In this document: positions 1 through 12,930 of the stretch, one piece after another | Layout: each line of letters begins with the position of its first letter | Numbering within the stretch: position 1 is the stretch's first letter | Source of the DNA: an uncultured Bacteroidales bacterium | Lineage (GTDB): Bacteria; Bacteroidota; Bacteroidia; Bacteroidales; UBA932 | Length of the DNA: 64,000 bases | Assembly: GCA_944326265.1 (NCBI GenBank) | Contig: CALVDE010000005.1 | Span: forward strand, 28,729 to 92,728 | Direction of reading: 5' to 3' | Program-made: the position numbers and the translations under genes | The notes under the pieces: model-generated | Seen by the model: the letters and a program-made list of their open reading frames with translations, nothing else | Database searches by the model: none | Told to the model about the DNA's origin: nothing

Positions 1-563
1 ATGTCCTCTATCTTCTTGTTCTGCAGTTCCAGGGCGTTGAGCAGGCCTGCTGCCGAGATGATGGCCGTGCCGTGCTGGTCATCGTGCATGACGGGGATGT
101 CGCACTCCTCCTTGAGCCTGCGCTCTATCTCGAAGCACTCGGGGGCCTTGATGTCCTCGAGGTTTATGCCCCCGAAGGTGGGGGAGATGGCCTTGACTGC
201 GGCGATGAATTTTTCCGGATCCTTCTCATCCAGCTCTATGTCGTAGCAGTCCAGTCCTGCGAATATCTTGAACAGCAGTGCCTTTCCTTCCATGACGGGC
301 TTGCCGGCCAGTGCTCCGATGTCGCCCAGTCCGAGGACGGCGGTACCGTTGGAGATGACGGCCATGAGATTGCCCTTGTCGGTGTATTCGTATGCGTTCT
401 CCCGGTTGCTCTTGATCTCCAGGCAGGGCCATGCTACTCCGGGTGAGTATGCCAGCGACATGTCGTGCTGGGAAGAGTATGGTTTCGTAGGAACAGTTTC
501 GATCTTGCCCGGACGGCCTAGGCGGTGATAGTCCAGAGCGGCTTTCTTATTGTTGTCTGACAT
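1..563 (-). CDS. maeB: NADP-dependent malic enzyme, N-terminal part (gene continues beyond window start)
   Basis: Absent from the ORF track because it has no stop in the window. Reverse translation from ATG (561-563) gives [51 protein letters not shown]...[27 protein letters not shown]...[11 protein letters not shown], the typical malic-enzyme N-terminus. Confidence 0.85.
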
Positions 564-597
564 ATTGCATTCATTTTAAGTGGTCCGCGAATATAGC

Positions 598-630
598 AAA
601 AAAAACCGCCGGATAACAAATCCGGCGGTT
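598..630 (-). terminator. Rho-independent terminator (10-bp stem ACCGCCGGAT/ATCCGGCGGT, 5-nt loop, 8-U tail on minus strand)
   Basis: Perfect inverted repeat at 605-614 and 620-629, preceded on the plus strand by an A8 run (a U-run on the minus transcript). It sits just upstream of the maeB start and would stop minus-strand transcription entering from the element or tRNA side. Confidence 0.7.
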
Positions 631-956
631 TCTGTCTTTTAGTAGAGCAGATGATAGAATTATCGAACCCTGTCATAGAGGATTATGTTAAAGTGGTGGA
701 ATTCGCAAAGTATTTTCTATGTATCAGATAGGGGAAATGTTTTTGCCAGTTTATCCCCGTTGTCTTGCCGACAGATATCTCCAAGTTTGTTTCATCTGTT
801 ATCCCCCTTGTTTAATATGCCGGGAATGGAAGGTGTGGAAAGCCGCCAACAGTTGGGCGTGATAATTTTTCCTTTGATTTTACCTATGACCTTGACTTTT
901 CTACTGTCGTTACTAACTATAAGAAGTGGCAGAATAAAAGAGCCATAAAATGTAAA

Positions 957-1154
957 ATGACAGAATATAGAAGACAGTATCGGGAACTCAGTGATGAGAC
1001 AAAGGCGAAGATAGCGCAGGCAAACCGTAACCGACCGAAATCGGAGGCGCACAGGCAGCGCATCAGTCAAGCTATGAAAGACTATTGGGCAAAAGTTCCG
1101 CATCGTTCTTCCAGCGGAAATGTAACCACTTATCAAGGGGTAGAAAACGGGTAA
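957..1154 (+). CDS. Small NUMOD3-like DNA-binding protein (possible 3' remnant of a homing-endonuclease gene)
   Basis: Two repeats, SDETKAKIAQANRNR and SEAHRQRISQAMKDYW, resemble the NUMOD3 motif of GIY-YIG/HNH homing endonucleases. The frame is open upstream back to 816 with no start codon. Confidence 0.45.
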   Translation: MTEYRRQYRELSDETKAKIAQANRNRPKSEAHRQRISQAMKDYWAKVPHRSSSGNVTTYQGVENG

Positions 1155-1183
1155 AATAATGCAGAATAAGTTATATGAAATAG

Positions 1184-1459
1184 GTGCAGACATTCGACAG
1201 GCTCAAAATCGTAACAGCCATAGATGCCATAGATGTGGTAAATGAGGTGGTGTCGTGTGATGTTGCCAAGGATGTGCAGTGTTCCGATGTTAGAAAGGTG
1301 CAGTCATATATCAGGAGCCATATATCAAATTACAACAAATACGTGTGCCGTGCATTGAAGAACGGCAATGTCGTGCTGGAGAAGAATGTGACAACCAGGA
1401 AAAACAAGAAGCGTATGACTATATATGATAAAGAGCAGGAGATGAAAAAGTCGGTCTAG
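1184..1459 (+). CDS. Hypothetical phage protein (GTG start, TAG stop)
   Basis: A 91-aa ORF in the position upstream of the tape measure. It has no recognisable motif and is in frame with the next ORF across its TAG. Confidence 0.3.
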   Translation: MQTFDRLKIVTAIDAIDVVNEVVSCDVAKDVQCSDVRKVQSYIRSHISNYNKYVCRALKNGNVVLEKNVTTRKNKKRMTIYDKEQEMKKSV

Positions 1460-1471
1460 TCGACAAAATTC

Positions 1472-1648
1472 ATGGATGAGGCGGTCTGCGGCAGTCAAGG
1501 GCAGAAAGCGTATGAGCCGATATACAATAGGTTTATCTGGGGATACCTCTTCACAGGTACCTACATGGCACTTCTGAGAGGTCTGACGGGACGGGTTACG
1601 ATGACTGTGGTCCGCACTATCGAGGGGCATGTTACGGATATCCGCTGA
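1472..1648 (+). CDS. Hypothetical 58-aa ORF, in frame with 1184..1459
   Basis: Hand-translated as MDEAVCGSQGQKAYEPIYNRFIWGYLFTGTYMALLRGLTGRVTMTVVRTIEGHVTDIR. It is below the ORF-track size cut-off and is followed by a strong hairpin. Confidence 0.25.
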   Translation: MDEAVCGSQGQKAYEPIYNRFIWGYLFTGTYMALLRGLTGRVTMTVVRTIEGHVTDIR

Positions 1649-1668
1649 TTTTGTTGCGAATCAGCGGA
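1641..1668 (+). terminator. Hairpin (10-bp stem TCCGCTGATT/AATCAGCGGA, 8-nt loop)
   Basis: Perfect inverted repeat overlapping the TGA at 1646-1648. The downstream tract is only moderately T-rich. Confidence 0.5.
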
Positions 1669-1708
1669 ATTGTGTCTATATTTGTTCCGTCATTAAAATC
1701 TGACTTTA

Positions 1709-1825
1709 ATGGGCGTATTGGTTGTCATCGGCTTGTTAATGGTTATCTGCGCAGCACTTGCAGTATACTTTTTCAGTGGTGCTGCGAAGGACTTCATTCG
1801 GATTATGCGGAAAAATAAACAATAG
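1709..1825 (+). CDS. Small membrane protein (38 aa; 52 aa if the TAG is read through)
   Basis: Hand-translated as MGVLVVIGLLMVICAALAVYFFSGAAKDFIRIMRKNKQ, one clear TM helix followed by a basic tail. It is below the ORF-track cut-off. Confidence 0.3.
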   Translation: MGVLVVIGLLMVICAALAVYFFSGAAKDFIRIMRKNKQ

Positions 1826-1934
1826 TATTTTTTGTTTTCTATCGCTGCGGCGTTTTTCTCCCTTTGAATACTGATTTTTTGTCCTTTTAAAACTCGGGGA
1901 CAGTGATTTCCTTTGCTTGTAAATTTACAGGCGT

Positions 1935-2747
1935 ATGAGTTTTTCATCTGAGGAAATAGCGAAAATACACGTAGTCATCAATTCCGGAGACATCCCTGAT
2001 TTTTCTGAAAAAATGAGAGATGCCGCCAAATCCGTATCCCAGCTTCAGGAGGAGATACAGCAGACGCAGAAGGATCTCGGTATACTTGCGGCCCGTGGCG
2101 ACCAGAATTCCGAGAATTTCAAGATAATGCAGAAGCATCTGTCGACCTTACAGACGCGGCTGAAAAACACCAACAAGGAGATGAAGTACTATACCGAGAG
2201 TATAGATATCAATCTCATGTCTTCAAATCAGCTCAATGCCCGTGCCAAAGTTTTGACAAATACTCTTAATGCCCTCTCCAAGGAGGCGGAGCCGGATCGC
2301 TGGAACGAACTTAACGATGAGCTGATCAAGGTCCGCCGCCGGATGGATGAGGTGCGCGTGGGTACTCTCGGCGTATCCGACTCCATGGATATCACCGGAA
2401 TGTCTATGCAGCAGCTGGATGTTTACAGCCGCCAGCTGAAGGCGCGTCTGGCCGCAGTGCCTCGCGATGCGGCTAATTCCAAGGAATGGGATTATTTGCA
2501 AAAAAGATTGAAGGCTGTTGAATCAGAACAGAAAAAAGTGTCATCTTCGATGTCTTCCGAATTTTCAGGAATATTCAAAAAGATAGGGTGGGGAACTCTT
2601 TTTTCTGGAGCATTGAGCGCATTGAAAAAATTTGGACAGGATTTTGTTTCCAATTCCAATATTATAGGTGATCGCTGGAACAGGACCATGACCGGAATGC
2701 GTAAAGGCTACGAGACATTCCTGACGGCACTTGCTTCCGGAGACTAG
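1935..2747 (+). CDS. Coiled-coil protein; probably the N-terminal segment of the tape measure protein (ends at in-frame TAG)
   Basis: Heptad-rich and Q/K/E/L-rich sequence with a C-terminal hydrophobic stretch GWGTLFSGALSAL. It is in the same frame as 2796..4862 with no other stop between them. Confidence 0.6.
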   Translation: MSFSSEEIAKIHVVINSGDIPDFSEKMRDAAKSVSQLQEEIQQTQKDLGILAARGDQNSENFKIMQKHLSTLQTRLKNTNKEMKYYTESIDINLMSSNQLNARAKVLTNTLNALSKEAEPDRWNELNDELIKVRRRMDEVRVGTLGVSDSMDITGMSMQQLDVYSRQLKARLAAVPRDAANSKEWDYLQKRLKAVESEQKKVSSSMSSEFSGIFKKIGWGTLFSGALSALKKFGQDFVSNSNIIGDRWNRTMTGMRKGYETFLTALASGD

Positions 2748-2795
2748 TCCAATTTCTTTTCCAATATCGCCAGGGCATATCGAGAGGGGCGTGAG

Positions 2796-4862
2796 TTGGC
2801 TGAGATGCAGGAGGCCCTTTTCGAGATGCAGAATGCCTCATCTTTGACAGAGATCCGGAATAATATCGAAATATCCAGGCAGACAGCAATCATGCGGGAC
2901 ACCACGAGGTCCAACGAGGAACGCATAGCCGCAGCAAATGAAATACTCAGACTGGAGAGGGAGATCATGGAGACAAAGGAGAGGACGGCAGAACGGGCCA
3001 GGGAGGCTGCGCTGGAGGAAATCAGAATAAAGACCGAGGGAAATCTCAGTGAGGAGGATATGGTTTACATGGTCGATAATTATTTCCAGAATGAGGAAAT
3101 GATAAATGCCGCAGGAGACTACTTGAAATTGGAGGAGGAGCTCGAGAAACTGCAGAAACTGACTCGAAGGGCTGCATATCGTGACAGCCCGGAATTTGCT
3201 GCAGGAGTGGACAGAAAGATAGAAGAATTGGAAAAAGAAATGAAGGCGATGCTAACTGCCACTGATGACCTTGAAAGAGTAGTGGAATTCCAGCGGGAGT
3301 ACGACCTTCTTAATGACGAGCAGATCCAGAACTATGTCAATGCCCAGACCTCATGGCTGAAGGCTCAGGCTGATTTCGAGCAGGCAACGCTCAGGGCGAA
3401 GACGACTATGTCCAGGCTGAAGGAGGAATTGAAGGATGAGAATTACCAGAAAGCCGTGGACGAGGTGGAGAGACAGTCGAAGGAGGAGACCAATATCTAC
3501 AAGCAGCAATATGTCGAGCGTAAGATCTCCGAGGAGGAGATGAACCGGGAGCTGGAGCGTATCGAGACGGAGAGGCTTAGGAGGGTGAACGAGATAAACA
3601 GGCAGTTCGGCGTTGATATCGTGGAGTCCACCGGTGCGGTTCTGGACAACTTGATATCCTCGATGGACGGCTTCACCCAGGCTGCGGCCGACGGCTCGGA
3701 GGAGGCCCTGGACCGTGTCATTCAGAAGTCCAAGGAACTGAATGCGGAACTGGAGAGAATGCTGGCCGACAGCGAGACGGCGGTGGCTAGGATGATGGAG
3801 GCAGAGCAGGCCGGTATGCAGGCCTCTCTGGATGAGGACGGCTACCGTCTGGCCTCCGACGTTCAGCAGGCTGGAGAGATCAAAAACAGGTTTGCGGATA
3901 CAAATACGAGGTTGACGCTCCTCTCCGCCGACAAGGATGCCGAGATGGCGCAGCTGCAGTCGCTCTATGACCAGGGGCTGATAGCAGAGGAGGAGTATCA
4001 GGCGGCAAGGAATGAAGTGATCCGCCGGTATGCTTCCGAGGCTTTCAATATCCAGACCCAGTCCCTTCAGAACGGCCTTCAGGTTGCTTCCGGTTTCCTT
4101 AACAACATCAGTTCTCTGGTCAGCAGCATCCAAGAGGCCGAGTCGGCCTCTCTCGACGCGCAGATGCAGAAGGAACTGGCCGCGGCAGGGGACAATGTAG
4201 ACAAGCGGGCGGCCATAGAAGAGAAATACGAGCAGAAGAAGCTGGATCTTCAGAAGAAGTATGCCGATATAGACATGGGCATCAAGATAGCGCAGACTAT
4301 TGCTGCATGTGCCTTGGCTGCCATCCAGGCTTTCGGACAGCTCGGACCTATTGCCGGAGGCATTATGGCCGGAGTCATCGCCGCTACCACAGCCGCCCAG
4401 GTAGCCACCATCGTCATGCAGCGCAACGCCATCAAGAACTCCACCGTCTCATCCTCTTCCTCCGGCACCACATCTGTAAGGACGGTAATTCCCGAGGACA
4501 GCGGCTACTCAGAAGGCGGCTTCACCGGCTACGGCGGCCGTCTGGAGCCCTCCGGCATAGTCCACCGCGGCGAGTATGTGGTCCCGGTGCCGGAGATGCG
4601 CGACCCCGAGGCGTATTCTCACGTGATGGCCATCGAGCGGATCCGCTCCCGCCGCAGCACACGAAACCGTCTGCCCGGATTCGCCGACGGCGGCTACACC
4701 GGAGACCCGTCTTCATCCGGCACGGCGGCGGCCATCAAGGAGATGACCTCTGTATTCAAGTCCCTGCGTGATAACCCTATCAAGGCCTATACCGTGCTTT
4801 CCGAGCACAACGCGGCCCAGGAGATAAGCAACAAGTTCAAAAAAGCCGCCTCGAGAAAATGA
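2796..4862 (+). CDS. Phage tail tape measure protein (main segment)
   Basis: Long coiled coil, then a Gly/Ala-rich hydrophobic block IAQTIAACALAAIQAFGQLGPIAGGIMAGVIAATTAAQ, then C-terminal GGFTGYGG...GIVHRGEYVVP...GFADGGYTG motifs typical of tape measure proteins. The frame is open upstream to the TAG at 2745. Confidence 0.8.
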   Translation: MAEMQEALFEMQNASSLTEIRNNIEISRQTAIMRDTTRSNEERIAAANEILRLEREIMETKERTAERAREAALEEIRIKTEGNLSEEDMVYMVDNYFQNEEMINAAGDYLKLEEELEKLQKLTRRAAYRDSPEFAAGVDRKIEELEKEMKAMLTATDDLERVVEFQREYDLLNDEQIQNYVNAQTSWLKAQADFEQATLRAKTTMSRLKEELKDENYQKAVDEVERQSKEETNIYKQQYVERKISEEEMNRELERIETERLRRVNEINRQFGVDIVESTGAVLDNLISSMDGFTQAAADGSEEALDRVIQKSKELNAELERMLADSETAVARMMEAEQAGMQASLDEDGYRLASDVQQAGEIKNRFADTNTRLTLLSADKDAEMAQLQSLYDQGLIAEEEYQAARNEVIRRYASEAFNIQTQSLQNGLQVASGFLNNISSLVSSIQEAESASLDAQMQKELAAAGDNVDKRAAIEEKYEQKKLDLQKKYADIDMGIKIAQTIAACALAAIQAFGQLGPIAGGIMAGVIAATTAAQVATIVMQRNAIKNSTVSSSSSGTTSVRTVIPEDSGYSEGGFTGYGGRLEPSGIVHRGEYVVPVPEMRDPEAYSHVMAIERIRSRRSTRNRLPGFADGGYTGDPSSSGTAAAIKEMTSVFKSLRDNPIKAYTVLSEHNAAQEISNKFKKAASRK

Positions 4863-6850
4863 AACTGATTGCAGAACACGGGCAGCTGCCCCTTCCCGAC
4901 GATCTGGAGATAGCCGTCGAGCAGCACAACCCATTCTTTTCGGACGAGGGAGCCTCGTCTGTCCCCGTTACCATCCCGGCGACCCAGCAGGCCCTCTCCG
5001 TCCTCGGCCGACCGGAAAGGGTAGGATCCACAAGTCGCCTGCGCCGCATGGCCGCGACCATGTCGGAGGGCGTGTTCATCAAGAACGGACAACTGCTTTT
5101 GGAGTCGGCTTCGGCAGACGAGGGCATCACATGTTCCTTCCTGCTGGCCGAGAGCGAGTTTTACACTCAGTTCAAGGAGAAGAATCTGCGGGATATATTC
5201 GCGGATAAGGTGCGCCAGGAATGGCAGGATATCGAAGCCTTGTACATTTATTTGGTGAAACTGTACCGGGGCGAGGCAACGGATGACTTCATCCTCTGCC
5301 CTGTGGCCGTGGACTATGATTCCGAGGCCGGCAGCTACAGAGTGAACAACGCACCGCTGGCCGGAGGACATCTCGAGTATCTGTCCAGGTATATCCCGGA
5401 CGGTGAGGACTCGATACTGGTGCCCGACGGTTATGGCATCGCTCCTTTCCTGTATCTGCACCGGCTGATAGACCTTCTCTTCAGCCTCAGCGGCTATACG
5501 GTGGGCCTCAATCCTTTCCGTACAGACACTGCCCTGAAGCGGATAATAGTCCTGCACAATGTGTCGGATGTCATCTGCACCGGGAAGATAGACTACTCGG
5601 ACCTGGTCCCTGACATGACCGTCTCTGACTTCCTGGAGTGGCTGCACGACAAGTTCCTGGCAGCGGTCAGCATCGATCCCGAGAGAAAGCAGGCAGATGT
5701 GTATTTGCTCCAGGATGTACTCTCGAATGCAGTTGCGGATATGGACCTGTCCGGCAAGATAGACGGCTATGTCACCATTACGTTCAACAACACCTCGAGG
5801 GTCGTGCTGAAGGCGGATACATCGCTGGAAGGGGCTGCACCGGCGGCCGGAACGCAAGAGGAATTTGCCTTGGCGAGACCTTTTGTTTCTGATGCGGATG
5901 AGGAATTGTTCAACAGCGGTGCAATAAAGTTGTATTCGGTAGTGCGCAGATTGGCGACCGGAGAAATATTTCTATTCTCGAACGATATGCGGGATTCTTC
6001 CATTTACGGGCGCAGGCGTCTGGGTACGGAGTATTTTGATTATGACAGGCGTGGAGATTCGGATACGGAAGTCTTTGAACCGTCAGATTTGTTGCCGCTG
6101 ATGGTGTTTTTCAATGGATATCTCATGCCATATATTGGTTCCAGAACCCACAGGCATACGCAGTTGAATGGAGAAAAGGAGGGCAGCGGGGGGCAGAAGC
6201 TGATTATTGCATACGACAGCGGTGTGTTTGACAGTTCAAAAAATTACAGATTCGCTACTGTCTTGAAATATGACCATGCCGGTAATGAGTGGATAGAACA
6301 TTCATTGACTCCCGACGGGCTTTACAAACGATTCTTCTCATTGTACAACGGTCTGCTTCAAGGCGGAAAAGAAGAGATGTCCGGTCGCGTGATGCTGTCT
6401 GACCGCGAACTGACAGGACTTGATATGATCATGCCGAAAATGTTCAAAGGCCGCCTGCTGTTGTTCAACTACTTGTCATTCTCCATTTCTGCGCGGAAAC
6501 TGACTAATGATGCCGCGTCGTTCATAGTGCTGAAGAATCTGAAAGATCCGGATCCGGAAATAGAATTCCAGACCCAGCACTATTATTGGAGGCTTAATCT
6601 TACACCGGTCACTTCAAGGCAGTATGAACTGGAGGAACGGTACGGAGGTCCCAATGCCGGAAGCTCGGCAGACTTCTCGTATCCTGGTGGAAATACTGTT
6701 CCGGCGGAAGTTCCGTCTTCGGCTGGACAAAAAGGGTTTTATCAGGCTTTGAAAGTTCATTTCTCCGTTACAGATGACATGACGGGAGAAACGGTATATG
6801 AGGCGGACGAGTATGTGACGGTGTGGTATGATTCTGTACAGATCCCGTAG
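4859..6850 (+). CDS. Phage tail protein (distal-tail/baseplate position, assigned by synteny only)
   Basis: ATGA start/stop overlap with the tape-measure gene. The 663-aa product has no motif I can name. Confidence 0.5.
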   Translation: MKLIAEHGQLPLPDDLEIAVEQHNPFFSDEGASSVPVTIPATQQALSVLGRPERVGSTSRLRRMAATMSEGVFIKNGQLLLESASADEGITCSFLLAESEFYTQFKEKNLRDIFADKVRQEWQDIEALYIYLVKLYRGEATDDFILCPVAVDYDSEAGSYRVNNAPLAGGHLEYLSRYIPDGEDSILVPDGYGIAPFLYLHRLIDLLFSLSGYTVGLNPFRTDTALKRIIVLHNVSDVICTGKIDYSDLVPDMTVSDFLEWLHDKFLAAVSIDPERKQADVYLLQDVLSNAVADMDLSGKIDGYVTITFNNTSRVVLKADTSLEGAAPAAGTQEEFALARPFVSDADEELFNSGAIKLYSVVRRLATGEIFLFSNDMRDSSIYGRRRLGTEYFDYDRRGDSDTEVFEPSDLLPLMVFFNGYLMPYIGSRTHRHTQLNGEKEGSGGQKLIIAYDSGVFDSSKNYRFATVLKYDHAGNEWIEHSLTPDGLYKRFFSLYNGLLQGGKEEMSGRVMLSDRELTGLDMIMPKMFKGRLLLFNYLSFSISARKLTNDAASFIVLKNLKDPDPEIEFQTQHYYWRLNLTPVTSRQYELEERYGGPNAGSSADFSYPGGNTVPAEVPSSAGQKGFYQALKVHFSVTDDMTGETVYEADEYVTVWYDSVQIP

Positions 6851-6898
6851 ATTTCTGTCCTTTTTCCTAATGGCCCGGCTAAGTAATTTTGTACTGTT

Positions 6899-8758
6899 AT
6901 GGCAACTATTATACAAAAACCGGACAGTGTGTCCTTTGCTCGGAATCTTAAGGAACTGATAATCTCAACCAGTTCGGAGATTTCATTCCAGTTATTGAAG
7001 GGAACGGAGGAACTGCTGAATGAGACATACTGCCCGGATATGGCCAACAGGGTCGCTGTGGATTTGTCAGATATAGTCACATCTTCGTTGACATTTACCA
7101 TGCCGTCGGCCAATGATGCGTATACAGATCAGTCTTCCATCCTTGATGTTTTTTCTGTAAAAATAGACGGGACCGTAAAGGCTACTTTTACTGCAGTACG
7201 GGCCGGAGTGGAAAATTTCAGCGGTACGGCATCCGAATTTCTGGCCGCGAACTGGCTCACATGGCAGCCACAGATCAAAGAAGTGCTGGCAAACCAGCCG
7301 GAGTGGCTGACTTATTATATTCCGGTAACTGACGGAGCATGTTGGGTCAGATTCTATTATACTGACGGAACCGTGTCGGATTATAAAATATGTGATTTCC
7401 CCTTCAGATGCTTTTCTCTCAACACCATGTTCTCCAGGCTTTGGAATCTGGATGAGTCCGGCAAGGATAGGTACGGAGTAATTGATGTCGTTGCAAAGAA
7501 CATACAAGGAAAGGTCCTTACTTACGTACAGCGTTATGTTCTGAGGAATAAGGAATCATTGGACCAGATATACCTTTGCGAAAACTCACTTGGCGGACTG
7601 GACACTTTCAGGTTTAACGGAGACCGGAAGTTAGTCCCGGAAATAGAGTATACGTCTTTGCAGTTTGACGGTATATATTCAGCGGCGGATCCGGATATCA
7701 ATAGAAAATGGAGCCAGAATACAGGGCTGCTTACTGACAGGGAAAGCCGCTGGTGCTGGGAGATTTTCAGGTCCACAAAAGTTTATCATCTGAACGATGG
7801 ATCCATAATGCCTGTTGTCCTTGACTCATCATCGATAGAGAAATCCGATATGGCAAGGTTGTCATCATTCTCATTCGAGTACAGGTATTCAGAGGACAAA
7901 GGACTCTTGAGGGTAGAAAGAACGGACAGCCTTCCTGACATCGTAGGGATACCAGGTCCCGACGGAGAGATTTTTTTTTTAGAGCCGAGACTCGTTGATT
8001 ATCCTGAGGCTGTATTGAGCGACACCCTCCTTCTTCTGACACAGTCACCGTTCGAGGAAAAGTGGTACAAGCTGAGCATAGGCAGCATCCGGGCCTCAAT
8101 TCTCACCTCCATACTGGAAACTTATGGTTCCATGCTGCACACGCATGACAACCTGTCCGTGCTGAACATGCTCTCGGTCGACGGCAGCGGAAAACTGCTT
8201 TTCAACGGATTGCCGGTCGGTGGGGGCGGTGAGCATGTGGACACCTCCGATTTCGTCACCCTCTCCACGTCCCAGACGGTGACCGGAGACAAGACGTTCG
8301 CCTCGGACGTGATACCCGGCGGACAGAAGGCCGACGGCACCAGAGGCAGGCTGTTCCTGCCGTCAAGCCTGGGGACGGGCGCGGTGGACATCATCGTGGA
8401 TACGGTGACTGAGAGGTATCCGGTTCCGGTCAAGGAGGCGGTGACGGATACGATGCTCGTAGCCGTGAGGGACACCGTGACGCTACAGGACACTGTCTAC
8501 ATCGTGCTCGGCATGACGCAGCGGTACTACAGAGGGCCGGGCTACGAGGCATGGGTGTCTGGCTACCGTCCCCGGCTGGACAGCTGCCGGGTATTTCCGT
8601 GCACAGTCTACATCAACAGCAGCACGGTGTCAAGAGAGCCTGTCAGGAGATGGGGCATCGGCATTCAGGCCGGTTACGGCATGGGACTCTTCAACGGCCA
8701 GGTCAAGGCTTTTCCCTATATCGGTGTCGGCATAAGCTGGAATTTCATCAGATTCTAA
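6899..8758 (+). CDS. Phage tail fiber / receptor-binding-like protein
   Basis: It holds the position after the tape measure and distal-tail genes. It has a QTVTGDKTF collar-like motif common in tail fibers, and an unusual C-terminus, GIGIQAGYGMGLF...GVGISWNFIRF. Confidence 0.5.
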   Translation: MATIIQKPDSVSFARNLKELIISTSSEISFQLLKGTEELLNETYCPDMANRVAVDLSDIVTSSLTFTMPSANDAYTDQSSILDVFSVKIDGTVKATFTAVRAGVENFSGTASEFLAANWLTWQPQIKEVLANQPEWLTYYIPVTDGACWVRFYYTDGTVSDYKICDFPFRCFSLNTMFSRLWNLDESGKDRYGVIDVVAKNIQGKVLTYVQRYVLRNKESLDQIYLCENSLGGLDTFRFNGDRKLVPEIEYTSLQFDGIYSAADPDINRKWSQNTGLLTDRESRWCWEIFRSTKVYHLNDGSIMPVVLDSSSIEKSDMARLSSFSFEYRYSEDKGLLRVERTDSLPDIVGIPGPDGEIFFLEPRLVDYPEAVLSDTLLLLTQSPFEEKWYKLSIGSIRASILTSILETYGSMLHTHDNLSVLNMLSVDGSGKLLFNGLPVGGGGEHVDTSDFVTLSTSQTVTGDKTFASDVIPGGQKADGTRGRLFLPSSLGTGAVDIIVDTVTERYPVPVKEAVTDTMLVAVRDTVTLQDTVYIVLGMTQRYYRGPGYEAWVSGYRPRLDSCRVFPCTVYINSSTVSREPVRRWGIGIQAGYGMGLFNGQVKAFPYIGVGISWNFIRF

Positions 8759-8765
8759 ACAAAAA

Positions 8766-8787
8766 CCCCGGGCACGATGGTCCGGGG
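8766..8787 (-). terminator. Hairpin CCCCGG(N10)CCGGGG with U-run on the minus strand
   Basis: The inverted repeat lies between the convergent tail gene and hicB. The A5 run at 8761-8765 gives a U-tail on the minus transcript. Confidence 0.55.
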
Positions 8788-8819
8788 CGCATCCATAAGA
8801 TGGAGTCGTCAAACAAACA

Positions 8820-9224
8820 TCACATGGATATGGCCAGCAGTCTGCGGCCCAGCTCGTGAGCTGCGGACTCAATCTTCTCCAGCTGTTTCTCGGATATGTA
8901 CTGGTCGCCTAATTTGTAATGTCTCATCAGGGAGGGAGATATACCGGCGAGCGCAGCGAACTTGGAGGCGTTGATGCAGTCAAACTGATTGAAGAAGGCC
9001 GACACATCGTACTTGTACTCAAATATCAGATCCTTCAGCTCATCAGGCACGGCCTCTCCGCTGTCCGTGTAGCTGTTGATGACTTCCTTGTAGGCAGTAA
9101 GGAAGTCGGCTTTTGCGGCCTCCACGCTCATACCGGAGCCGCTTATTACGGAATCTTTCAAATCCGGAGTATATACCCCGTATCCGTTCTCGTCTTTCTC
9201 AATAATAGCCAAAGTCTTTCTCAT
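8820..9224 (-). CDS. hicB: HicB-family antitoxin (N-terminal HicB fold + C-terminal HTH)
   Basis: MRKTLAIIEKDENGYGVYTPDL...VEAAKADF is the HicB-like RNase H-fold start. The C-terminus FAALAGISPSLMRHYKLG is HTH-like. The gene lies directly downstream of hicA. Confidence 0.8.
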   Translation of the reverse strand: MRKTLAIIEKDENGYGVYTPDLKDSVISGSGMSVEAAKADFLTAYKEVINSYTDSGEAVPDELKDLIFEYKYDVSAFFNQFDCINASKFAALAGISPSLMRHYKLGDQYISEKQLEKIESAAHELGRRLLAISM

Positions 9225-9251
9225 GTTATTTTGCTTTTTAAGACAGGGGAG

Positions 9252-9437
9252 TCATTCTTCCCCTATCTGTTTCAACAATCTTTTCATCAGTCCCGGTCTT
9301 ATTTCCTGGGACCAGTGCCGCTCGATGACCAGCGAACCGCTCCGTTCCGGATGTCGGTAAATGTCGTGGTTGCCGCCGCTGCGGTAGCAGTACCACCCTT
9401 TGCTTCTCGCTAATTTCTCAAATTCATTCCATTTCAT
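9252..9437 (-). CDS. hicA: HicA-family mRNA interferase toxin
   Basis: The 61-aa product MKWNEFEKLARSKGWYCYRSGGNHDIYRHPERSGSLVIERHWSQEIRPGLMKRLLKQ matches the YcfA/HicA pattern (G..H..Y.h......v..H). Confidence 0.85.
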   Translation of the reverse strand: MKWNEFEKLARSKGWYCYRSGGNHDIYRHPERSGSLVIERHWSQEIRPGLMKRLLKQIGEE

Positions 9438-9473
9438 AGAACTCTGTAATGTTTGTTTGACAATGCAAATATA

Positions 9474-9487
9474 TCACAAAAATGTGA
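9474..9487. promoter_or_regulatory. Palindrome TCACA-AAAA-TGTGA in the hicAB promoter region (candidate HicB operator)
   Basis: A perfect 5-4-5 inverted repeat between int and hicA. It is flanked by two ATTTGCAT direct repeats and a TATATTTG -7 box on the minus strand. Confidence 0.4.
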
Positions 9488-9507
9488 GTTATGCAAATTT
9501 TTATTTG

Positions 9508-10692
9508 TTAAAAGTCGGAACTGTGATGCCTGATGGCCTCGTTGGCCTCCTCGATGTCGTGGGGAGTGTACAGGTCTGTCATCAGCAGGGAGTGGTGCCG
9601 TGCCTGGTTGCGTACGCTCAGCAGGTCGGTGTTCGCCTTGATCAGGTCGGTGATCCCGGTATCCTTGAGCGAGTAGAACTTGTAGTTGGGAGGGAAATGC
9701 AGGTTCTTCCGGACATAGTGCGTCCAGTAGTCCGTGAATATCTTGTTGCTTCGCTGGCCGGAGCCGGGGCGCATCTTGTCCGAGAACAGGTAGTAGCTGT
9801 CGGGATAGCGGAAGATGTCCAGCTCCATCATCAGCTTCAGGACTTTGTCCGGGAGTGTGACGGTGCCGTCCTTGCGGTTCTTGCTCGAGTAGTCAGGAAT
9901 GAAGATGGTGCCGCGCTTAACAGAAATGTGCTTCAGCTGGATGTAGCTCATCTCCTTGGGCCTGATGAAGCAGTAATAGAGGATGTAGCATGCCAGGAGG
10001 AAATGCCGGTTGTTCTTCTCGGCGAACTCCTTCAGCCTGGCCATGTCGGCCTTGGCTATGATGCTGCGGTTCTTCCTGGACTTCTTTTTTCCGAGAGACG
10101 AGATGCCGGCGGTTATGTCAGTGCTGACGTACTGCTTCTCCAGCAGGAATTTCGCGAAGTGCTTGAGCCAGTTCAGATAGTTGTCGCGGGTAGTGCTCGA
10201 GAGTCCCTTGTCGAGCCAGATTCAGTCCAGGAACCGGACACAGAAAGTGTGGTCCACCTGGTAGATGTAGTTCTTCGGCCGTGGCTGCGATGCGTTCCAT
10301 TCCAGCATTATATTAAGGTAGGATCGGTAACCCTTGCATGTTTTCTCCCTCAGCAGATCCTCCTGCAGGAGTTTGGACAGATAAGCCTCGTATGCCTCGC
10401 AGGCATCCTGCAGGGTGGAGTAGGTGGCTCCGGAGGCTGCCTGTATCCACGGGTTCCACCCGGCCTGCAGCTCCTCGAAGATGCGGCTCATCAGGTCGGA
10501 GGCGTAGATCCTGCGGTCGCGTTTGTTGGAAATGTTGTTGAGCTTGAATTTCTTTCTGCGCATTGTTCCGCTCGCAGGATCGAAGGCGTAGAAGTCAACA
10601 TACCAGTCCTTGCCGATATGGAGTTTCGGCGGAGTGTAAAATTTTACGGCTGAACAACCGGACCGCTGATTGCGTTTTTGACTGAATTGCAT
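9508..10692 (-). pseudogene. Tyrosine recombinase/integrase interrupted by a single in-frame TGA (10222-10224)
   Basis: The N-terminal ORF (10222..10692, Arm/SAM-like) and the C-terminal catalytic ORF (9508..10044, with ARHHSLLMTDLY providing HxxR..Y) are in the same frame. The 59 codons between them (IWLDKGLSSTTRDNYLNWLKHFAKFLLEKQ...) are open. The total of ~394 codons is a normal integrase length. Confidence 0.85.
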
Positions 10693-10830
10693 TTTTTTTT
10701 GGAAGAATCGCCGTCCTTAGGCGACTCACCCAAAAAAATGCTGTTAAACTTGTCGTCCCGTTTCCGTCCCGGCTGAATACCGGGAGAGCCAGCTAAATTG
10801 CTGGCTCTCTGCTGGATATTCGGATTTTTG

Positions 10831-10903
<73 letters not shown>

Positions 10904-10912
10904 ATGTAGACT

Positions 10913-10920
10913 GCAAAAGT
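10913..10920 (-). promoter_or_regulatory. Bacteroidota -7 box TACTTTTG for tRNA-Met
   Basis: The reverse complement of CAAAAGTA matches TAnnTTTG and lies ~10 nt upstream of the tRNA 5' end. Confidence 0.6.
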
Positions 10921-10953
10921 AGATATACTTTTTTAATAATCCAAAAAATGGAG

Positions 10954-12312
10954 CTAAAAAATATCGGAAATTTTAACTTTTCTTTGTTCTCCGTTTTGTA
11001 TGTCCTTTATTGACAGTTCCTGACATGCGATTTCATCGTCTCCTGCCAGGATAACGTATTTGATGCCCTTTTTGTCTGCATACTCGAACTGTTTGCGCAG
11101 TTTTACAGGCTCCGGGTATATCTCGGCCGCATGCCCGGCAGCCCTGAATTTTGCTGCTGCGCTCAGAATGTACTCCAGTGAACTGCCTCCCATATTGGCG
11201 AACAGATATTCTGTGCCTCTTACGGCTTCCTTGGGGAATTTGTCCAGTCCGGTCAGCACATCGTATATTCTGTCGGCGCCGAAGGAGATGCCCACTCCTG
11301 AAGTGTCCGGGAGACCGAATATGCCGGTGAGATCGTCGTACCTTCCGCCTCCGCAGATGCTTCCGATGGCGAAATCCAGGGCCTTGACCTCAAATATGGC
11401 ACCGGTGTAATAGTTGAGACCCCTGGCGAGTGAGAGTGAGAATTCGACTTCTGTGGCAATGCCTGCTGATGTGATGAGGCCGAAGAGTTCCTCCAGTTCG
11501 TCGAGTCCGATCTGTCCGATGGCCGAGCCTGCCAGCAGTTTCCTCATTTCCGCGATCTTGCTGCTGTTTGTTCCGCTGAGGGAGAGCACCGGCTCTATCC
11601 TGGCGATGCTTTCAGGCAGTACCCCTCTTTCGGCCAGCTCGGCTTTTACTGCATCGATTCCGGTCTTCTCTATCTTGTCGATTGCCACGGTGATGTCGGT
11701 GAGCTTGTCAGGCTGACCGGAGACCTCGGCCAGACCTGCCAGTACCTTTCTGTTGTTGATCTGTATCCTGACCCGGATGCCGAGTGTCCTGAACACCTCG
11801 TCGGTGATCTGTACCAGTTCGAGCTCGTTGAGCAGGGACCTGCTTCCTATGACATCCACGTCGCACTGATAGAACTCGCGGTAGCGGCCTTTCTGGGGCC
11901 TGTCAGCTCTCCATACCGGCTGGATCTGGTACCGCTTGAACGGGAATGTCAGTTCGTTGCGGTGCTGTACCACGAACCGCGCGAAAGGTACCGTCAGGTC
12001 ATAGCGCAGCCCTTTTTCGCAGACTCTCAGGGCCAGGGCGTTGCTGCCTGCTTCGGATAACTCGGCGGACGGCAGCTGCCGGATGTCCTTGAATGCGTCT
12101 CCTGAGTTGAGTATCTTGAACAGCAGTCTGTCGCCTTCTTCTCCGTATTTGCCCAGCAGGGTGGACAGATTCTCCATTGCCGGGGTCTCGATGGGGGAAT
12201 ATCCGTATTTTCTGAATACAGACCTCACTGTGTCGAAGATGTAGTCTCTGCCGGCCATTTCTGAGGGGCCGAAATCTCTGGTGCCTTTGGGTATGGATGG
12301 TTTCTGTGTCAT
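10954..12312 (-). CDS. hisS: Histidine--tRNA ligase
   Basis: PKGTRDFGPSEM...YGYSPIETPAMENLSTLLGKYGEEGDRLLFKIL and class II aaRS motifs; 452 aa. Confidence 0.95.
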   Translation of the reverse strand: MTQKPSIPKGTRDFGPSEMAGRDYIFDTVRSVFRKYGYSPIETPAMENLSTLLGKYGEEGDRLLFKILNSGDAFKDIRQLPSAELSEAGSNALALRVCEKGLRYDLTVPFARFVVQHRNELTFPFKRYQIQPVWRADRPQKGRYREFYQCDVDVIGSRSLLNELELVQITDEVFRTLGIRVRIQINNRKVLAGLAEVSGQPDKLTDITVAIDKIEKTGIDAVKAELAERGVLPESIARIEPVLSLSGTNSSKIAEMRKLLAGSAIGQIGLDELEELFGLITSAGIATEVEFSLSLARGLNYYTGAIFEVKALDFAIGSICGGGRYDDLTGIFGLPDTSGVGISFGADRIYDVLTGLDKFPKEAVRGTEYLFANMGGSSLEYILSAAAKFRAAGHAAEIYPEPVKLRKQFEYADKKGIKYVILAGDDEIACQELSIKDIQNGEQRKVKISDIF

Positions 12313-12378
12313 TATTGTTGAATTTGGTTCTGCAAATTTAGAAAGTGTTTTTTACTTTTGCGCATAAATTTAAAAATC

Positions 12379-12930
12379 ATGGAAATTACAGAAACAGGAA
12401 TAGAGGGTCTTCTTGTTGTGGACCCAAAGGTCTTCGGGGATGCCAGGGGGTATTTCATGGAGGTGTTCTCGGAGAGGGATTTCAGGGCAGCGACAGGTCT
12501 GGACGTACATTTCGTGCAGGACAACGAGTCCATGTCATCCAAGGGCGTGCTGCGCGGACTGCATTTCCAGAAAGCGCCTCATGCCCAGTCCAAGCTGGTG
12601 AGAGTGGTGCGCGGCAGCGTGCAGGACGTGGCGGTGGACATGAGGGCTGGCTCGCCTACTTTCGGAAAGTATTTCTCAGTGCTGCTCAGTGCGGAGAACA
12701 AGCGTATGTTCTATATTCCGGAGGGATTTGCTCACGGTTTTCTGACTCTTGAGGACGGAACGGTGTTCCAGTACAAATGCGGAAGCTTCTATGAGCCTTC
12801 ATCCGAGGGATCGGTGCGGTGGAACGACCCGGAGATAGGGATTGAGTGGATGATGCGCGGCTGCGATTATATCCTGTCGGAGAAGGACAGAAAGGCTCCT
12901 CTGTTGTCAGAACAGCCTTATCGCTTTTGA
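12379..12930 (+). CDS. rfbC: dTDP-4-dehydrorhamnose 3,5-epimerase
   Basis: MEITETGIEGLLVVDPKVFGDARGYFMEVF...GVLRGLHFQ...KLVRVVRGSVQDVAVD. The ATG at 12379 is preferred over the TTG at 12358 used by the ORF track. Confidence 0.9.
   Translation: MEITETGIEGLLVVDPKVFGDARGYFMEVFSERDFRAATGLDVHFVQDNESMSSKGVLRGLHFQKAPHAQSKLVRVVRGSVQDVAVDMRAGSPTFGKYFSVLLSAENKRMFYIPEGFAHGFLTLEDGTVFQYKCGSFYEPSSEGSVRWNDPEIGIEWMMRGCDYILSEKDRKAPLLSEQPYRF

Follow-up and report, generated by a model that had tools for sequence, protein, structure and literature searches.

Is the amber codon that interrupts a long reading frame in this Bacteroidales chromosome a codon that is read, a boundary between two genes, an error or a lesion? 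In the window, by which we mean the whole stretch of 64,000 nucleotides that was analysed, positions 1935-4862 (+) form 975 codons in one frame (counting the amber and not the terminal TGA), and the TAG at 2745-2747 is the sole internal stop in that frame. The 5′ ORF (1935-2747, +) consists of 270 codons plus the premature stop and specifies a 270 aa product. The annotated ORF that follows it (2796-4862, +; 688 aa, TTG start) shares its frame and lies inside a 3′ part of 704 codons (2748-4862, +). The initial annotation had placed the two ORFs in the same frame with only the TAG between them and had seen no frameshift or further stop; both points were borne out on the sequence, the TAG being the single lesion in this gene. 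Its account of the spacing held in part: 16 codons separate the TAG from the TTG at 2796, but the first ATG (2805) is 19 codons away, and the peptide that had been quoted, SNFFSNIARAYREGRELAE, comprises the 19 residues up to that ATG rather than 16. With the regional base composition, 975 codons should contain ∼44.6 stops, against the one observed (P(≤1) ∼2e-18), and the remaining five frames of 1935-4862 contain 12-53 stops each. A frame of 975 codons with a single stop far exceeds chance.

A large protein collection was searched with the fused translation, in which X stood for the stop codon. The search returned 83 close homologs (P0001-P0083), each of them one protein of 860-1032 aa, and nearly all spanned 99-100% of the query. 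The best homolog, P0001, is 98% identical to the fused translation and, at 975 aa, agrees with the frame length given in the initial annotation. Residues 1-270 of the 83 full-length homologs align to the N-terminal ORF, and the 3′ part, which encodes a hydrophobic block and a C-terminal domain, is collinear with the homologs as well. Profile searches gave matches to PHROG tape measure families that were weak (E = 1e-5 to 1e-7) yet consistent, with the halves in the correct order: the N half matched the N-terminal regions of the profiles (phrog_167, E = 3e-6; phrog_1535, 1.5e-5) and the C half their C-terminal regions (phrog_1506, 1.2e-7; phrog_24, 1.3e-7). No Pfam tape measure domain scored above threshold, the only hit being a sub-threshold SHOCT match (25 bits vs a cut-off of 27). 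In three relatives (L004, L016 and L017), the gene stands after ∼12 co-oriented genes and before genes for a 661-aa protein and a 1294-aa protein, the latter with tail-fibre PHROG matches. Apart from its stop, the tape measure gene is clean, an observation that was counted against explaining the stop by decay.

These results indicate that 1935-4862, judged by its homologs, represents one tape measure gene rather than two. The view of the initial annotation that the two ORFs make up one long tape measure protein is thereby upheld, since the 83 single-protein homologs run collinear over the junction. Homologs encoded as two separate proteins, named beforehand as the finding that would speak for two genes, were not seen. 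The start of the downstream ORF only 16 codons past the stop could still suggest that both the 270-aa and the 688-aa product are synthesised and have a joint or separate role, perhaps as domesticated proteins. Against this, none of the 83 homologs is divided at the TAG position, and we return below to other evidence on the point.

We then considered what the TAG replaces. When the query and the 83 homologs were aligned with MAFFT, the column of the TAG, which lies within the strongly conserved motif LASGDWSNFFSN, held Trp in 81/83 homologs; one of the other two has Phe and one a gap. In the DNA of L001-L003 and L010-L013, GAC TGG TCC stands in place of the GAC TAG TCC of the window, and TGG was present in all close relatives compared as DNA (counted as five), the nearest intact allele included. 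Over 2928 positions, the closest intact alleles, those of L001-L003, show 80 differences from the window, and L010-L013 are 99.5% identical to it over the portion of the tape measure gene that they keep. Because the DNA of the relatives has TGG at this codon throughout, the lesion reduces to one G-to-A change at 2746, and the homolog column and the DNA of the relatives together show that the amber is a nonsense mutation of Trp271 (TGG to TAG). The initial annotation had allowed that the TAG might be decoded, as Gln or X, and had singled out the residue opposite it as informative. That residue is a near-invariant Trp and not Gln, which, with the TGG of the relatives, speaks against decoding.

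Genetic code 15 is used by certain gut phages of Bacteroidota. If the element used this code, in which TAG = Gln, or if a suppressor tRNA read the codon, a full-length tape measure protein would be made. TAG-to-Gln recoding is well established in gut phages, and recoded TAGs are reported chiefly in late or structural genes (bioRxiv 10.1101/2021.08.26.457843; PMC9523058). The Bacteroidales host, the known occurrence of TAG-recoded phages in gut microbiomes and a tape measure frame that is intact apart from the TAG are in keeping with such a reading, but most of the evidence is opposed to it. The residue opposite the TAG is not Gln; there is a single in-frame TAG in 975 codons, and the other plus-strand genes of the island are uninterrupted. 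One of them, a 663-aa tail-module gene (4859-6850, +) whose ATG overlaps the TGA of the tape measure gene, itself terminates on TAG, at precisely the point where its homologs stop: 661-aa proteins in L004 and L016 align to it from end to end (q1-661 = window 4859-6844). Host genes, such as that for histidyl-tRNA synthetase, also terminate on TAG. Searches with ARAGORN and Rfam detected no suppressor tRNA (CUA anticodon) in the 64-kb window, the only tRNAs being tRNA-Met(CAT), tRNA-Lys(TTT) and tRNA-Asp(GTC). Furthermore, all homologs, even the 98%-identical one, are called intact under the standard code. Other same-frame ORF pairs of the window, namely GyrA/TPR (TAA between them), DUF5606/DUF6852 with a MiaB-like radical SAM protein and a LolA-like protein with an unknown one, are separate, complete genes. 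A window-wide recoding of TAG was also tried and rejected, since read-through of TAG extends ORFs less than read-through of TGA does and the same-frame pairs are complete genes. All in all, TAG-to-Gln recoding is rejected as largely refuted, and a full-length product made through code 15 or a suppressor tRNA is extremely improbable.

The amber differs from the TGG of the closest relatives by a single base, as would be the case if a sequencing or assembly error had turned a true TGG into TAG in an intact gene. We consider this very unlikely. Split products identical to those of 270 aa and 688 aa occur on at least 14 contigs, which come from different assemblies (NCBI, ENA and Logan); some of these assemblies may share one study, so that their independence is not fully established; one contig with the split products was recovered from six samples. 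The presence of the split products on this many contigs of several assemblies makes a one-off sequencing error unlikely, and the same haplotype carries a second, independent Trp-to-stop change in an integrase gene. A 107-kb ENA scaffold (L005) is 100% identical to the window across 12.7 kb (window 1-12747 = L005 8067-20813), and L006 is 100% identical across 10.8 kb. All examined carriers of the TAG allele represent the same haplotype, and the allele therefore has no evolutionary depth. In a scan of a genome collection, only two loci were retrieved, both from one uncultured Bacteroidales MAG, which leaves the taxonomic placement of the host coarse.

The gene lies in a phage-derived island of ∼10 kb (∼600-10800), and the gene order is malic enzyme, island, integrase, tRNA-Met and HisRS. 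On the left, the chromosomal flank is formed by the 5′ portion of the host gene for malic enzyme (1-563, -), which continues in the corresponding gene of L005 (6296-8629, -; Pfam malic, Malic_M and PTA_PTB). A cassette at 1685-1906 exists as two alternative alleles, the version in the window resembling that of the intact phage L004. Downstream of the 663-aa gene, a 619-aa tail-module gene (6899-8758, +) is intact in the window. Its C-terminal part is a DUF6808 domain (Pfam, 2e-23) and its N-terminal ∼447 aa match the 1294-aa protein of L004. A tyrosine integrase pseudogene (9508-10692, -) follows, with 394 sense codons broken by an in-frame TGA at 10222-10224, and is adjoined by the tRNA-Met gene (CAT; 10830-10903, -) identified by ARAGORN and by the Rfam tRNA model (64 bits). 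This tRNA gene is probably the integration target and the right border of the island. The right flank is the host histidyl-tRNA synthetase gene (10954-12312, -; Pfam tRNA-synt_His, 1.8e-36, and HGTP_anticodon), and the remainder of the 64-kb window is ordinary chromosome (HisRS, FtsK, a LolA-like protein, GyrA, a TPR protein, a MiaB-like radical SAM protein and others).

Comparison with intact relatives, one NCBI MAG (L004) and two IMG/VR contigs of 26 and 39 kb (L016 and L017), points to large losses from this island. In each of the relatives, the 10 kb before the tape measure gene hold ∼12 co-oriented genes, for none of which tblastn gave a match at any position of the 64-kb window. Several distal genes of the three relatives likewise had no match in the window. 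Homology to the intact phages begins at window 1502, inside a gene of 128 aa that stands before the tape measure gene and of which the last 48 codons are left (1502-1648, +; tblastn match q81-128 = window 1502-1645). Position 1502 marks the left junction of a deletion or rearrangement, and the island is best described as a truncated prophage. For a left-side att copy of the tRNA-Met region, no exact direct repeat of at least 11 nt was found. A PHROG search on the missing module of the relatives returned mostly families of unknown function, so that the claim of a missing module rests on synteny and tblastn and not on named head or terminase genes. The lineage to which these uncultured Bacteroidales phages belong is poorly characterised, most of its proteins having neither Pfam nor PHROG annotation.

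Damage is not confined to the tape measure gene. The integrase translation reads ...CVRFLD*IWLDKG..., and at its TGA codon (10222-10224) L010-L012 have GAC TGG ATC. This comparison shows a second Trp-to-stop change in the island, TGG to TGA. PF00589 (Phage_integrase) matches the 178-aa C-terminal integrase product. Sister strains share the locus, with the rib operon, GH20, AhpC and malic enzyme on one side of the island and HisRS and a dTDP-sugar isomerase on the other, and the DNA of L010-L013 is 98-99.7% identical there. These four keep TGG at the tape measure codon and carry a 4.8-kb deletion (window 3589-8388) that joins the tape measure gene at codon ∼551 to the final 127 codons of the DUF6808 gene; L012 has an additional 84-nt in-frame deletion in the integrase. 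In L001 the tape measure gene is intact, and at window 8020 a tandem duplication of 13 bp (CGACACCCTCCTT) frameshifts the 619-aa gene. Further truncated alleles, of 169-553 aa, belong to the 90%-identity cluster of P0001, and the P0089 type (L007-L009) has a 147-codon tape measure stub at a different chromosomal locus. Different inactivating events in each strain, on a shared remnant, are the pattern expected for prophage decay. The initial annotation had proposed a comparison with related strains and had judged that the gene did not look heavily decayed. That judgement is not borne out for the element as a whole, which is a truncated prophage without its upstream module, has a second nonsense mutation in the integrase and shows other inactivating lesions, with the TGG kept, at the same locus in sister strains.

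The pattern of substitutions was analysed next to these lesions. Between the window and L001, the tape measure gene shows 62 synonymous and 18 non-synonymous differences, and divergence is patchy, with ∼0.2% at 2406-3427, ∼5.5% at 3428-4551 and ∼11% at 2282-2405. The synonymous excess does not fit long neutral drift in place and counts against the decay explanation. Given the patchy divergence and the two alleles of the cassette at 1685-1906, we infer that variation was imported through recombination with functional phage relatives. The patchy and mostly synonymous divergence would be consistent with such exchange, a phenomenon that is already known.

Compared with all sister strains, the window has 29 substitutions over 8770 comparable nt, which lie on the branch between it and the other strains and, there being no outgroup, cannot be assigned with certainty to the lineage of the window. 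Deaminase-like hypermutation, with G-to-A changes in Trp codons, was considered and dropped: 13 of the 29 substitutions are GC-to-AT, an unremarkable spectrum. In the tape measure and integrase genes together, the window differs from all sister strains at 12 positions (nine synonymous, one missense and two nonsense); of all substitutions possible in the two genes, ∼4.1-4.8% would give a stop codon. An enrichment of nonsense changes was rejected as well, at least two in 12 not being significant (P ∼0.1, the author's binomial estimate).

The proportions of these 12 changes are slightly odd for simple drift, and this could be taken to favour selection for silencing of the tape measure and integrase genes, or to accompany a functional split into two products. 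The lack of significance is an argument against selected silencing. A functional split is further opposed by the identity of the carriers in sequence, with no sign of maintenance, by the absence of partner virion genes from the island and by the sister strains, which delete the region outright. Functional products on both sides of the stop, or selected silencing of the two genes, are therefore hardly credible. That the two Trp-to-stop changes are adaptive, the host gaining from an island fixed in place and a costly or toxic tail protein silenced, or from domesticated fragments, is also very doubtful.

Taken together, the amber very probably arose recently, as a point mutation that inactivated the tape measure gene of a defective Bacteroidales prophage remnant. 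Under this loss-of-function reading, UAG would end translation and yield a 270-aa N-terminal fragment, and the 704 codons downstream would probably remain untranslated, with at most weak re-initiation at TTG 2796 or ATG 2805. The upstream module of ∼10 kb and the distal tail genes would have been lost before the amber arose, so that nothing would depend on the tape measure gene any more. Since these parts appear already to be gone, the genes of the island would be drifting, with lesions that differ per strain. The amber itself is likely to be without phenotype, because the island is predicted to be unable to build a virion. The result is mainly a negative one: an in-frame amber in a structural gene of a Bacteroidales phage is a natural candidate for recoding, and three features discriminate this case from it, namely the Trp aligned with the stop, the TGG of the relatives and the independent lesions in sister strains. 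For annotation, two pseudogenes would be entered within a prophage remnant of ∼10 kb: a single tape measure gene at 1935-4862 and an integrase gene at 9508-10692.

How does this locus compare with known systems? With the PHROG tape measure families (phrog_167, phrog_1506 and phrog_24) the predicted protein shares a length of ∼975 aa, a richness in coiled coils and a hydrophobic block towards the C-terminal end. The gene is placed directly 5′ of distal tail genes, as tape measure genes are, and its N and C halves match the N- and C-terminal parts of the profiles, respectively. It differs from these families in that it is broken by a premature stop and in that the profile matches are weak. The element also resembles the gut phages with TAG-to-Gln recoding (code 15; crAss-like and Lak phages) in its gut Bacteroidales setting and in an in-frame TAG within a late structural gene. 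In contrast to these phages, its TAG is a lone one opposite Trp, the TAG of the neighbouring gene is a true stop and a suppressor tRNA was not found in the 64-kb window. The element does not belong to this group. The closest counterpart is provided by defective, or cryptic, prophage remnants, in which phage genes likewise stand beside a tyrosine integrase and a tRNA gene, entire modules are absent, and nonsense, frameshift and deletion lesions vary by strain at the locus. From these remnants we see no essential difference, and the feature is of a kind already known, ordinary gene decay.

A tyrosine integrase pseudogene lies at 9508-10692 on the reverse strand and is interrupted by a single in-frame TGA at 10222-10224. 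Sequence comparison with relatives showed that this codon is a tryptophan TGG in three sister strains with the island at this locus (L010-L012), so that the TGA represents a second Trp-to-stop transition in the haplotype of the window. The integrase of one of them, L012, also carries an 84-nt in-frame deletion. Antisense to the pseudogene, the ORF list contained a 417-aa ORF (9400-10653, forward strand). This ORF was absent among the genes called on the stretch of the ENA scaffold L005 that is identical to the window, and it is probably spurious.

Other lesions were found in the close relatives. In the sister strains L010-L013, whose copy of the island occupies the identical chromosomal locus, a 4.8-kb deletion corresponding to window positions 3589-8388 fuses tape measure codon ~551 to the final 127 codons of the DUF6808 gene. 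In the close relative L001, this 619-aa tail gene is frameshifted by a 13-bp tandem duplication (CGACACCCTCCTT) at ~8020-8050, equivalent to window position 8020; the tape measure gene is intact in the L001 lineage.

Tape measure stubs were also detected at another chromosomal locus, which neighbours RF-1, a Na/Ala symporter and a metallophosphatase. At this locus, in L007-L009 and L015 (uncultured Bacteroidales MAG BRZ_BC__bin25), the first ~147 tape measure codons alone remain, with 93-97% identity, and are followed by unrelated sequence. Among the members of the tape measure protein cluster, P0090 breaks off at codon 143 and P0093 at codon 170, and both continue into similar out-of-frame tails ending in VVNCFQT. 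The similarity of these tails hints at a common junction or an inserted sequence.

At the left end of the island, directly past the terminator hairpin of the malic-enzyme gene, a sequence at 640-680 (TAGTAGAGCAGATGATAGAATTATCGAACCC) resembles a tRNA D-arm plus T-arm and shares AGTAGAGCAG, in inverted orientation, with the tRNA-Met at 10830-10903. Neither ARAGORN nor Rfam called a tRNA at 640-680, and the resemblance could be coincidental or the remnant of a degraded tRNA. In the interval separating the host flank from the onset of intact-phage homology, three small ORFs of 87, 65 and 91 aa (685-1459) are conserved in L001 and L010-L013 and were not found in the 10-kb region that precedes the tape measure gene of the intact relatives L004, L016 and L017; the 65-aa ORF gave a faint NUMOD3 match. 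The small cassette at 1685-1906, immediately before the tape measure gene, exists as two unrelated alleles: the 222-nt allele of the window is similar to that of the intact prophage L004, and its 288-nt counterpart in L001 and L010-L013 encodes a 75-aa ORF. These alleles suggest mosaic recombination.
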